Shown piece after piece: positions 20,884 to 54,926 of a DNA stretch of 64,000 bases (position 1 is its first letter; each line of letters starts with the position of its first letter). Source of the DNA: an uncultured Cytophagales bacterium (GTDB taxonomy: Bacteria > Bacteroidota > Bacteroidia > Cytophagales > JAAEPT01). The position numbers were made by a program, and so were the translations under genes. The stretch is from assembly GCA_964511645.1 (NCBI GenBank), contig CAZEGV010000002.1:2689-66688 (forward strand), given 5' to 3'. The notes under the pieces are model-generated. The model saw nothing but the letters and a program-made list of their open reading frames with translations, was not told where the DNA came from and ran no database searches.

Positions 20884-20929
20884 CTAAGGGAGGTGTAGCT
20901 TTCTAGTGTCAAAATAGATTAATGTAAAC

Positions 20930-21084
20930 GCAAAAGGGATTGAAGTGGAAATCCTTTGTTGTTTTTTTGTTCTGTATTTCGACAAACTCAATATGACACA
21001 AAAAAAACAACAAAGATTGGGAACGAGAAAGCCCGACCGAATATATGGCGTAGCGTGAGCGTAGTCATGTATTGGGGGTTTGCC
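20930..21084 (+). repeat. Structured interspersed repeat, copy A
   Basis: Shares ordered conserved blocks with 40602-40740 and 53700-53884. Long A/T-rich hairpin 20950-20969 / 20999-21018; closing helix GCAAA/TTTGC. Confidence 0.75.
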
Positions 21085-40584: not shown

Positions 40585-40601
40585 GGGTAGGATTTTTTTT
40601 T

Positions 40602-40740
40602 GCGTTAGGGATTGACGTGGAAATTCTTTTTTATTTTTATACTTCGACAAGCTCAGCATGACAAAATTATAAAAATAAAAAAGATTGGGAACAAAAAGCC
40701 CGACCCCACGAGTTTGCCTTTTTGGCGAGTGGGGGAACGC
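40602..40740 (+). repeat. Structured interspersed repeat, copy B
   Basis: Same block order as copy A. Hairpin arms 40622-40641 / 40668-40686; closing helix GCGTT/AACGC. Confidence 0.75.
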
Positions 40741-52429: not shown

Positions 52430-53410
52430 ATGAGTGTTAAAATTGGCAATATTGATTTAGGAGAGTTTCCACTATTACTTGCTCCAATGGAAGATGTAAG
52501 TGATCCACCTTTTAGGGCTGTATGCAAAGCAAATGGTGCGGACATGATGTATACCGAATTTATCTCTTCGGAAGGGTTGATTAGAGACGCTCGAAAAAGT
52601 CGTCAGAAACTTGATATTTATGAAGATGAGAGACCTATTGGGATTCAAATATTTGGAGACAAAATAGACTCTATGCGTGAAGCGGCATCTATTGCTGAGC
52701 AAGCTAACCCAGAATTGATAGACATAAACTACGGTTGCCCTGTAAAGAAAGTGGCTTGTAAAGGAGCTGGAGCAGGGATTCTTAGAGATGTTCCCAAAAT
52801 GGAACAAATGACCCGAGAAATTGTAAAACAAGTAGATCTTCCTGTTACTGTCAAAACCCGACTCGGCTGGGATAGCGATACCGTGCAGATTGTAGAAGTC
52901 GCTTTAAGACTGCAAGATGCAGGAATCAAAGCTTTGAGTATACATGGTAGAACAAGGATGCAGATGTACAAAGGGGAAGCCGATTGGACAGAAATTGCCG
53001 CAGTCAAAAACCATCCTGATATAGAAATTCCGATTTTTGGGAACGGTGATATTGATTCACCCGAAAAAGCATTGTTATACAAAGAAAAATACAATGTAGA
53101 CGGCATTATGATTGGAAGAGCCGCCATTGGTTATCCTTGGATTTTTAATGAAATCAAACACTACCTTGCTACAGGAGAGCAACTCCCCAAACCCACAGTA
53201 AATGAACGTATTATTGCCTGTGAGCAACACCTCAACTTCTCTCTTAGTTGGAAAGGAGAGCGGCAAGGAGTCTTAGAAATGAGGAGACATTACACCAATT
53301 ATTTTAAAGGAATGACAAATTTTAAACCATTCAGGACTCGATTGGTAGAGACATTAGAACCTAACGAAATTAAGCAAATTTTGACCGAAGTAAAAGGATA
53401 TTATAGTTGA
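52430..53410 (+). CDS. dusB: tRNA-dihydrouridine synthase
   Basis: LAPMEDV.D..FR, INYGCP.KKV and HGRT motifs. Confidence 0.85.
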   Translation: MSVKIGNIDLGEFPLLLAPMEDVSDPPFRAVCKANGADMMYTEFISSEGLIRDARKSRQKLDIYEDERPIGIQIFGDKIDSMREAASIAEQANPELIDINYGCPVKKVACKGAGAGILRDVPKMEQMTREIVKQVDLPVTVKTRLGWDSDTVQIVEVALRLQDAGIKALSIHGRTRMQMYKGEADWTEIAAVKNHPDIEIPIFGNGDIDSPEKALLYKEKYNVDGIMIGRAAIGYPWIFNEIKHYLATGEQLPKPTVNERIIACEQHLNFSLSWKGERQGVLEMRRHYTNYFKGMTNFKPFRTRLVETLEPNEIKQILTEVKGYYS

Positions 53411-53691
53411 TGAACCCAATTAAAATAAGCGATCGAGCGCTAACCGAAATCAAAAATATTTTTGACACCAAAGGCATTCCATCTGATTATTGCCTCAGAA
53501 TTACCGTAAAAGGTAGTGGATGTGCCGGAATTAATCACGCTATTGGTTTTGATAAACTTGGAGACAATGACGAACAATACGACTATGATGGATTGAAAGT
53601 AATCATCAACAAAAAAGACTTTATGCACCTTATTGGTGTTTCTGTGGACTTTACAGAAAGTAATGATGTCACGGGATTTGTTTTTAGTTAA
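53407..53691 (+). CDS. HesB/IscA-like protein lacking the C-terminal Cys-Gly-Cys motif
   Basis: LRITVKGSGCAG core and ...DVTGFVF near the end, but the ORF stops where family members continue with NPNA...CGCG.SF. Confidence 0.6.
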   Translation: MMNPIKISDRALTEIKNIFDTKGIPSDYCLRITVKGSGCAGINHAIGFDKLGDNDEQYDYDGLKVIINKKDFMHLIGVSVDFTESNDVTGFVFS

Positions 53692-53699
53692 ATTGTGGG

Positions 53700-53884
53700 A
53701 GCTTCCCTATCGTTTCACTCTCGTGGCTATTTCGCCCCAACGGTCGGGTCATTCGTTCCCAATCTTTGTTGTTTTTATGATTCTCCCATACTGAGCCTGT
53801 TAGTATCAGCATGAGCTTGCCGAAGATAAAATGAACTTTATCCGTAAAAAAACAACAAAGGATTTCCACTGCTACCCCTAAGCC
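53700..53884 (-). repeat. Structured interspersed repeat, copy C (inverted orientation, expanded apex)
   Basis: The reverse complement carries the same ordered blocks. Hairpin arms 53761-53780 / 53845-53864; closing helix GGCTT/AAGCT. Confidence 0.75.
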
Positions 53885-53960
53885 ATTTCTCGATTGAGTC
53901 AAATATAATTGTTAATACACCTTTTCTTGTCTATCTTGTTATTATATAAACCTCTTTATT

Positions 53961-54926
53961 ATGCGAACGATTTTATTTATTAGTCTAATTATTTGTAGCA
54001 GTTTACTCATTGTTACTGAAACGATTTATCCAATTGAAGGAAGTTTACTTAAAATCATATTAGCGATAAGTACTTTGCTTTCAGGAGTATTGATGTTTAT
54101 TTTCTCAGCATTAAACTTAGAGGAATTCAAAAATAGGTTAGCTAACCTAAATAAAGATTTTGTTAAAAATGACAAAGCCCTAAAAATTCAAATAGAAAAA
54201 TCTGAGCAGATTGATGAAACGCTAGCCAAATATGAGCAAGTAAAATTAGAGTTTGAAGTCAGTAAAAAAAGTGTTTTAACCCTAGAACAAGAAAAACAAA
54301 ACATACAGCTCAACCTCAATGTACTCAAGCAAGAAGGAGGTGAAAACAATATCCAGACTCAAAGCCTAAAGCAAGAATTGAGTCAAGCACAAAGTAATAA
54401 TAATGAACTAAGTATTGAGAATAATGAACTTAAACGCAATGTGCTAAATCTTGAAATGAAACTAGCACAAAGCATCAATATCCGCCCAGTTAAAAAAGCT
54501 GAGTCGACTATTGCTACTACTGATTTTCAGTTCAACAATAAAGAAGAATGTTTACAAGTATTGGCTGATAAGAAGTGGAATGAAGTACATCAATACGAGT
54601 GCTCTAAATGTGAAAACACTAACTATAATGCCCTTAATCACCTAAATTCTCGAAAATGTACCCGTTGTAACCATATAGAGTCTGCAATGGCACGCACGAT
54701 ATTTACAGGAGTAAGATTCCCCTTAGAAAAAGCATTTCACATTACTCAATTGGTATTTGATGAGCCTAAAATTCCGATTGAAAAATTAATTAAAGAAACT
54801 GAGTTGAGTAAAAACACTTGCTGGAAGTTTAAAAAGAAAATAATTAAACAAATAAGTGCTTACCAAAAGAAAAACAAACTAAAAGCCAATAAATGGGAAG
54901 ATATTATATACCCTAGTTTTATTTAA
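53961..54926 (+). CDS. Membrane-anchored coiled-coil protein with an IS1595-type transposase Zn-ribbon/HTH module and no DDE domain
   Basis: Two N-terminal TM helices and a Q/E/N/L-rich coiled coil. C-terminus reads ECSKCE...RKCTRCNH.ESAMARTIFTGVRFPLEKAFHITQLVF...LSKNTCWKFKKKI, resembling IS1595 N-termini (CP.CG...C..C...FS...GTIF...KLPL.KWF.AI.L...). Confidence 0.6.
   Translation: MRTILFISLIICSSLLIVTETIYPIEGSLLKIILAISTLLSGVLMFIFSALNLEEFKNRLANLNKDFVKNDKALKIQIEKSEQIDETLAKYEQVKLEFEVSKKSVLTLEQEKQNIQLNLNVLKQEGGENNIQTQSLKQELSQAQSNNNELSIENNELKRNVLNLEMKLAQSINIRPVKKAESTIATTDFQFNNKEECLQVLADKKWNEVHQYECSKCENTNYNALNHLNSRKCTRCNHIESAMARTIFTGVRFPLEKAFHITQLVFDEPKIPIEKLIKETELSKNTCWKFKKKIIKQISAYQKKNKLKANKWEDIIYPSFI

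Follow-up and report, generated by a model that had tools for sequence, protein, structure and literature searches.

Three copies of a structured repeat lie in the 64,000-nt stretch of DNA analysed here (the window), and the third of them, copy C (53700-53884, minus strand), raises the question of whether such a block is a leader attached to particular genes or a unit in its own right. The first-pass annotation had described it as an inverted copy with an expanded apex, flanked by a truncated gene and a transposase-derived gene, and from its orientation had argued for an autonomous or mobile unit. Copy C is a complete member of the Flavo-1 dispersed-repeat family. The Flavo-1 RNA motif (Rfam RF01705) was reported by Weinberg et al. 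2010 (PMC2864571) as multi-copy, intergenic and found in Bacteroidota; that paper and its supplement give the occurrence of Flavo-1 only, and the literature consulted treats it as a computational Bacteroidota motif with no functional clue. In these papers we found no description of copy number, stop-codon placement, an invertible tip module or MITE carriage. With cmscan, positions 1-76 of RF01705 all aligned at 53738-53888 on the minus strand (38.4 bits, E 1.5e-6), in line with the earlier claim that every family block is present on that strand of 53700-53884. The score lies below the 42-bit gathering score of the model because of the penalty for 74 nt inserted in the terminal loop, and this apical insert is the sole large departure of copy C from the model; copy A (20922-21042, plus strand, 47.4 bits) and copy B (40597-40709, plus strand, 46 bits) both exceed the cut-off. 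The Flavo-1 helices and internal-loop boxes (GGGAU..GUGGAAAUCC / GAUUGGGAACG..AGCCCGAC) are all present in copy C. Its DNA is 73-89% identical to other copies in the genome, with similarity stopping within a few bases of the unit borders, and the limits 53700 and 53884 given earlier proved exact, being set by the pairing of GGCTT (53884-53880) with AAGCT (53704-53700). As a typical member of a family catalogued in 2010, copy C adds little by itself. The parts of the unit and its two neighbours are as follows.

53880..53884, minus strand: 5' strand of the closing helix P1, GGCTT, pairing with AAGCT at 53700-53704; the T conserved in the family precedes it, at 53885.
53848..53879, minus strand: 5' half of the Flavo-1 hairpin, with the AGGGGTAGCAGTGGAAATCC core and the U-rich stem arm CTTTGTTGTTTTT (cmscan with RF01705 and the pair counts of alignment A1).
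53777..53847, minus strand: expanded apex of about 71 nt, with extra hairpin 1 at 53843-53824 and the doubled module as hairpin 2 at 53815-53785 in the MFE fold; collinear with at least 10 copies.
53743..53776, minus strand: 3' half of the Flavo-1 hairpin, with the A-rich stem arm AAAAACAACAAAG and the core GATTGGGAACGAATGACCCGAC (cmscan and alignment A1).
53705..53742, minus strand: variable hairpin P3 of type CGTTGGGGCGAAATAGCCACGAGAGTGAAACGATAGGG, outside the Rfam model; the type is found in at least 12 other units.
53697..53704, minus strand: 3' strand of P1, AAGCT (53704-53700), and the conserved CC(C) tail, where similarity to other copies stops.
53407..53691, plus strand: HesB/IscA-like single-Cys gene (Pfam Fe-S_biosyn, 37.1 bits), a neighbour and not part of the element.
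53961..54926, plus strand: 321-aa gene, divergent from the 5' end of the unit (Pfam Zn_ribbon_IS1595, 17.9 bits against a cut-off of 25.4), a neighbour.

The Rfam model describes a central hairpin whose conserved loops and helices are the same in copy C; the real unit is larger, with the closing helix P1 and the hairpin P3 added, and the public model spans only about half of it. The common plan of the units consists of the conserved T, the 5-nt strand of P1, the Flavo-1 hairpin from AGGGAU... to ...AGCCCGAC, P3, the partner strand of P1 and CC[A/T]AA, for a length of about 100-190 nt enclosed by the 5-bp P1. The sequence of P1 varies from unit to unit yet stays complementary (GGCUU/AAGCC, GCGUG/CACGC, GCGUU/AACGC, GCAAA/UUUGC and others). 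Of 111 units, 86 have a perfect 5-bp P1 with a C directly after it, compared with 15 +/- 3 after swapping 5' strands between units; this control is the fair test for P1, as its 3' strands had been placed by complementarity in our alignment (A1; 82 sequences, with tips and P3 taken out). Four of the five P1 pairs are changed on both sides. Across A1, 97.7% of cells pair, both-side changes occur at 14 of 23 pairs, and the covariation score is 0.488, against 0.166 for shuffled alignments and at most 0.12 with the partners slid; copy C is compatible with every helix. The fold is also strand-specific. In 80 of 91 units the strand modelled by Rfam gives the more stable fold of the two, with a mean advantage of 5 kcal/mol (-49.2 versus -44.5 kcal/mol for copy C), and P1 contains 55 G-U pairs versus 6 A-C pairs across the family.

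Two further features of the fold were noted in passing. In A1, one non-canonical pair is G/A in copy C and A/G in most copies (GGGGT...GACCC versus GGGAT...AGCCC). Judged by eye and uncounted, this position (A1 columns 11 and 57; 53875 and 53749 in copy C), which lies beside a GGG/CCC helix, appears to switch from A/G to G/A in a subset of units, with GGGAU..AGCCC replaced by GGGGU..AACCC or GACCC, and would represent covariation at a non-Watson-Crick position. Beyond the window, this genome (G000) also holds a Flavo-1 subfamily in which an additional hairpin (UCCGUCAGUAGACGGA) directly follows GGGAU and would make a four-armed unit (G000:C6:8735, C25:2497, C35:28073, C88:2059, C10:23698 and C39:5274).

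Both spacings reported for copy C are accurate: it begins 8 nt past the TAA stop codon (53689-53691) of the HesB-like gene, and from its other end it is 76 nt to the ATG at 53961. The HesB-like ORF does lack the C-terminal Cys motif, and of the three ligand cysteines of A-type Fe-S carriers (IscA/HesB) only the first (GSGCAG) is found in this gene and in its 11 orthologues. All 11 orthologues lack the motif and stop at the same GFVF(x0-8) point, 1-10 residues past GF(V/L/E/A)F as against one residue here, and the gene is therefore full length for its family rather than truncated. A canonical paralogue with CGCGESF is encoded on another contig (G000:C71, 7466-7735), so that the single-Cys HesB-like family, which occurs in all 13 genomes of the taxonomic family, coexists with an IscA paralogue of the canonical three-cysteine type. 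An exact-protein look-up of the HesB-like product gave no match. The start of the gene overlaps the dusB stop codon (ATGA) here, and dusB and the HesB-like gene are not adjacent in any relative: dusB and its upstream gene are syntenic in 11 relatives, and the HesB-like gene lies elsewhere in all 11. A synteny comparison at dusB-hesB bears on the gene not being truncated. No Flavo-1 unit stands beside the dusB or HesB-like orthologues in any relative examined, but with the HesB-like gene relocated the site is not a strict empty one.

The gene on the other side had been taken to encode only the DNA-binding module of an IS1595-type transposase. That description suits residues ~190-300 of the 321-aa protein, whose C-terminal part is of the IS1595 zinc-ribbon/helix-turn-helix type; the rest comprises an apparent hydrophobic N-terminal segment, as read from the sequence, and a weak coiled-coil-type match. 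Over residues 190-262 the protein shares 37% identity with the start of the one true IS1595 transposase of the genome, at its N-terminus (G000:C117:622-1515; DDE_Tnp_IS1595, 68.8 bits), and no DDE domain was found in the 321-aa protein. A metagenome scan with the protein returned many relatives of 40-47% identity to the C-terminal domain only and none of its N-terminal part. By domain content, the gene encodes a domain relative of the IS1595 transposase and not a transposase. The homology and the 76-nt distance had invited the idea that copy C was inserted, or is bound, by this IS1595-derived protein, the insertion having truncated the HesB-like gene. We consider this extremely unlikely, and as a version of insertion and truncation it is largely refuted. 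The HesB-like gene is full length for its family; one domain gene and one transposase stand against about 130 units, and the 3.2-kb contig of the transposase carries no Flavo-1 unit, which leaves no enrichment of repeats near IS1595-like genes. IS1595 transposases normally leave terminal inverted repeats and target duplications, and the units here have neither. With ~130 units, ~2,100 genes and two spacers per gene, we estimate that chance alone would put a unit into a spacer beside roughly 12% of genes. No link between Flavo-1 and IS1595-like genes is detectable, and the single adjacency is at chance level.

The genome as a whole contains about 130 Flavo-1 units, and Flavo-1 is among the most abundant non-coding elements of Flavobacteriia-type genomes. 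A whole-genome covariance-model search, in which 150 of 732 candidates were scored, gave at least 122 matches, with copy C not among them. A half-model search recovered 130 paired units, 65 on each strand; as this census and part of the Rfam scan miss the subfamily with the extra hairpin, the true copy number exceeds 130. A fourth copy on the same contig (G000:C2:67037-67137, plus strand, 36.1 bits) lies ~350 nt past the end of the window. Directly beside about 8 Flavo-1 units there is a second, unrelated repeat family with an apparent motif like TATAGTTAAACTGGTAT (G000 C14:34441, C85:216, C20:130, C115:323, C108:3865, C16:24158, C12:45025 and C32:5496).

Among relatives the family is patchily distributed. 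Flavo-1 was found in 5 of the 13 genomes of the taxonomic family (108, 82, 84, 25 and 12 matches) and in none of the other 8; across the order, 17 of 141 sampled genomes have it (14 of 83 genera). The form in which it occurs also varies. In G008 the units are bare, with a much longer P3 and a P1 that still covaries. In G005, near-identical units sit inside a ~170-bp MITE with 25-bp terminal inverted repeats (GTGAATATCCG...) and, judged by eye, apparent AT-rich target duplications of roughly 8-10 bp; the assembly is broken there. In G012 a different MITE, with terminal repeats TTCTACTTTACGAAGTTA / TAACTTCGTAAAGTAGAA, surrounds a Flavo-1 unit, and the terminal inverted repeats of the two MITEs measure 18-25 bp. 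These two MITEs, in two other genera, have a Flavo-1 core and have recently multiplied (loci L056-L075 in G005 and L076-L085 in G012); at L079, two copies flank a CTAACCACTAAT-type minisatellite. At the other extreme are eight genomes with a single match, where singleness may be an undercount as 31 candidates per genome were scored; on reading the printed sequences, P1 is recognisable in at least 7 of these 8. Three of the apparently low-copy units adjoin a DNA methyltransferase gene, whose ORF extends into the unit in two cases: the methyltransferases are of the C-5 or N6/N4 type (L100, L102 and L104, in G027, G060 and G062), and the frame enters the unit in L102 and L104. Elsewhere the low-copy units adjoin a gene whose protein weakly matches the integrase core (rve), a barstar gene or, on our reading of the sequence, an RHS-like gene.

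No mobilising enzyme was found. For the Y1/RAYT transposase (PF01797), nothing in this genome scored above the cut-off (best 19.7 bits, partial), G008 has none, and Y1 genes do not co-occur with Flavo-1 across the 13 genomes of the family. Reverse transcriptase (RVT_1) is absent from G004, G005, G008 and G012, is represented in this genome by a 64-position fragment only, and is present in six genomes of the family without a Flavo-1 match. Both RAYT and reverse-transcriptase partners are ruled out by this distribution. A blastn search of phage and plasmid collections gave no match.

Placement relative to genes follows a clear rule. Mapped against long ORFs as a simple gene set (2,127 ORFs, 86% coding), 4 units overlap the end of an ORF, 19 touch contig ends and the remainder are intergenic. 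Between genes of the same direction, units lie antisense in 46 cases versus sense in 15 (n=61; binomial p = 9e-5). Of 108 units, 70 have their P1 end turned toward the stop codon of a convergent gene at a median distance of 13.5 nt, with 38 within 15 nt, and in 6 units the TAG of the neighbour is the CTA of the unit itself. The distance from the 3' end to the convergent stop is 1 nt for copy A, 22 nt for copy B and 8 nt for copy C. The strand and the 5' neighbour of copy C do differ from those of A and B, as had been pointed out, but all three 3' ends abut a convergent stop codon and copy C has the commonest layout of the family, so that its orientation lends no weight to mobility. The units are distributed over the leading and lagging replication strands at 47 versus 63, and replication-strand bias was rejected as the primary cause of the placement, since this split is predicted by the antisense-to-gene bias together with 65% of genes being on the leading strand. 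The bare units of this genome show neither terminal inverted repeats nor shared flanks, and beyond T(-1) and CC[A/T]AA nothing around them is conserved. The longest flanking direct repeat averages 3.24 nt, against 3.19 +/- 0.17 nt in controls, and gives no sign of a target-site duplication.

Rfam labels Flavo-1 as 'Gene; sRNA', on which reading each unit would be an sRNA gene whose folded strand is transcribed and acts in trans. The strand asymmetry of the fold (the excess of G-U over A-C in P1 and the energy advantage of the Rfam strand) fits RNA-type folding, and copy C has TATATTTG and a sigma-70-like hexamer pair 20-45 nt upstream on its own strand. For the family, however, only 9 of 108 units have the Bacteroidota -7 promoter box upstream, which is no enrichment and falls below genes (17%), and promoters belonging to the units themselves were rejected on this count. 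The high copy number, about 130 per genome, the wide variation in tips and P3, and the near-identical bursts that break the G005 assemblies also sit poorly with sRNA genes. In F. psychrophilum transcriptomics, Flavo-1 matches are sense, antisense or untranscribed (PMC9723704), with many copies untranscribed in the published RNA-seq. We therefore regard sRNA genes as very improbable. In annotation terms, pipelines that label such matches sRNAs should not count 130 sRNA genes here; nor is there a truncated neighbour or a transposase link.

A function retained at gene ends is the serious rival. On this account the unit would be a host-useful cis element, either an insulator or terminator against antisense transcripts or, in the manner of REP/BIME, a protector of 3' ends or a site for a DNA-organising protein, spread by any vehicle and kept by selection. 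The 13.5-nt median between the 3' end and a convergent stop (70 of 108 units) speaks for it, as does the position in convergent pairs such as those of copies A and B, where the unit lies, in sense orientation, within the 3' UTR of one gene and its end meets the stop of the other. Compensatory changes keep the structure across genera and in apparently single-copy genomes, two unrelated MITEs carry it, and the stretch after P1 is T-rich, with T in 51-56 of 91 units at +6, +8 and +9. This T-rich tail, on the other hand, is largely the complement of the last codons and stop of the neighbouring gene. Copy C lacks a canonical intrinsic terminator: no G+C-rich hairpin with a U tract occurs on either strand across 53500-54100, and on both strands the arms of the long hairpin are U-rich at the 5' side and A-rich at the 3' side. 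The 46 antisense copies between genes of the same direction have no evident source of a folded-strand transcript and no promoter motif, and the F. psychrophilum transcriptome data follow no consistent pattern. No match was seen in 124 of the 141 genomes sampled from the order, so the element is dispensable. Weighing both sides, we hold gene-end function to be possible but unlikely.

We favour the reading of the Flavo-1 unit as a non-autonomous, horizontally spreading DNA module, with a probability of roughly 60%. The observed membership, architecture, copy number, placement rule, patchy distribution and MITE carriage are better explained by a spreading structured repeat than by a leader, a terminator or an sRNA gene; patchy spread and carriage by MITEs in relatives favour a spreading non-autonomous repeat. 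With ~130 dispersed copies, patchy relatives and units borne by MITEs in two of them, copy C indeed belongs to a self-contained and probably spreading unit rather than being a gene-specific leader, as the first-pass annotation had supposed on other grounds. For the bare units of this genome, we infer movement by themselves and an enzyme responsible for it. In such a process, the fold on the strand modelled by Rfam would be needed for propagation or persistence, and a unit would land or survive almost exclusively in gene-free sequence directly behind a stop codon, its 3' end pointing to that gene. Several findings count against mobility, among them that the search for a mobilising enzyme gave none and that the bare units lack terminal inverted repeats and target-site duplications. 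Diverged copies keep their pairing by compensatory changes, the three-part fold is kept in apparently single-copy genomes, and the strict rule of position and orientation fits no known transposition mechanism; selection at each locus for a function in the host would account for the kept pairing equally well.

Known repeat systems share parts of this pattern. The REP/BIME and REPIN-RAYT repeats of Proteobacteria (Nunvar 2010, PMC2817692; Bertels and Rainey 2011, PMC3116915) resemble Flavo-1 in forming hundreds of structured extragenic repeats, mostly behind genes and without target duplications, in which the fold counts more than the exact sequence. A Flavo-1 unit, however, is a branched fold of 100-190 nt whereas a REP is a 20-40-nt palindrome or inverted pair, and unlike REPIN-RAYT systems Flavo-1 is found in this genome and in G008 without a RAYT/Y1 transposase. 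Bacterial MITEs such as the Correia elements of Neisseria are, like Flavo-1, small, non-coding, high-copy, intergenic and patchily distributed; in contrast to copy C and the other units here, they have terminal inverted repeats and target duplications, which in Flavo-1 appear only with the carriers in G005 (both) and G012 (the repeats). Integron attC sites are folded recombination elements that lie right after a stop codon, with the folding strand antisense to the gene and a tip of variable length, and Flavo-1 matches them in all three respects. Despite this similar geometry the attC analogy was rejected: Flavo-1 units are scattered one by one and not arrayed beside an integrase, and RYYYAAC/GTTRRRY core sites are not so arranged in them.

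The expanded apex of copy C, finally, is real and is shared. The apical sequence quoted earlier is present, and the stretch between the cores is 121 nt long in copy C versus 87 nt in A and 82 nt in B, an excess of 34-39 nt that consists of a second, tandem half-module and an extra small hairpin. The proposed nested hairpin forms as described, with CATGCTGA (53813-53806) pairing with TCAGTATG (53794-53787) within a helix of 10 bp in the MFE fold, and a second apical hairpin spans 53843-53824. This pairing is specific to copy C, as relatives have UCAGACUGA at that position; the enlarged tip is not, as the same doubled module is found, collinear, in at least 10 other units. The 9-mer TCATGCTGA had been read as an inverted form of a sequence in copy B, and it is the reverse complement of copy B TCAGCATGA. 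Inversion is nonetheless the less simple account, for two substitutions lead to it from TCAGACTGA, the doubled-tip class form common to at least 6 other copies, and a micro-inversion, though possible, is not needed as its source.

The tip is the main variable region across the family, with lengths of up to 255 nt. A ~22-nt module (UUCGACAAGCUCA..AUGACA) is present in one orientation in 28 units, in the other in 16 and in both in one, while 67 units, mostly short-tipped, lack it; both orientations occur on both backbone subtypes. The hairpin tip may thus be a tolerated variable region that gains, duplicates and inverts the module, and the module may be an independent small repeat that enters hairpin tips. 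A bolder reading, which we consider doubtful, makes of Flavo-1 either a new structure-defined mobile module, integrating in fixed orientation a few bases past stops and with a flip-flop cargo tip, or a domesticated gene-end insulator picked up by transposons. Such a module would use an enzyme other than the Y1/HUH transposases, the reverse transcriptases and the DDE transposases that act on inverted repeats, and copy C would be one instance with a doubled tip.

Outside the Flavo-1 backbone, the ~22-nt apical module (CUUCGACAAGCUCAGACUGACA) also occurs alone in this genome (G000:C10:41192, C18:22328, C19:12713, C23:31594, and C118:491 and 557). The 255-nt tip, in the unit at C1:131, contains an apparent inverted-repeat pair ATACCATTTT...AAAATGGTAT, which may be an insertion related to the second repeat family found beside some Flavo-1 units.
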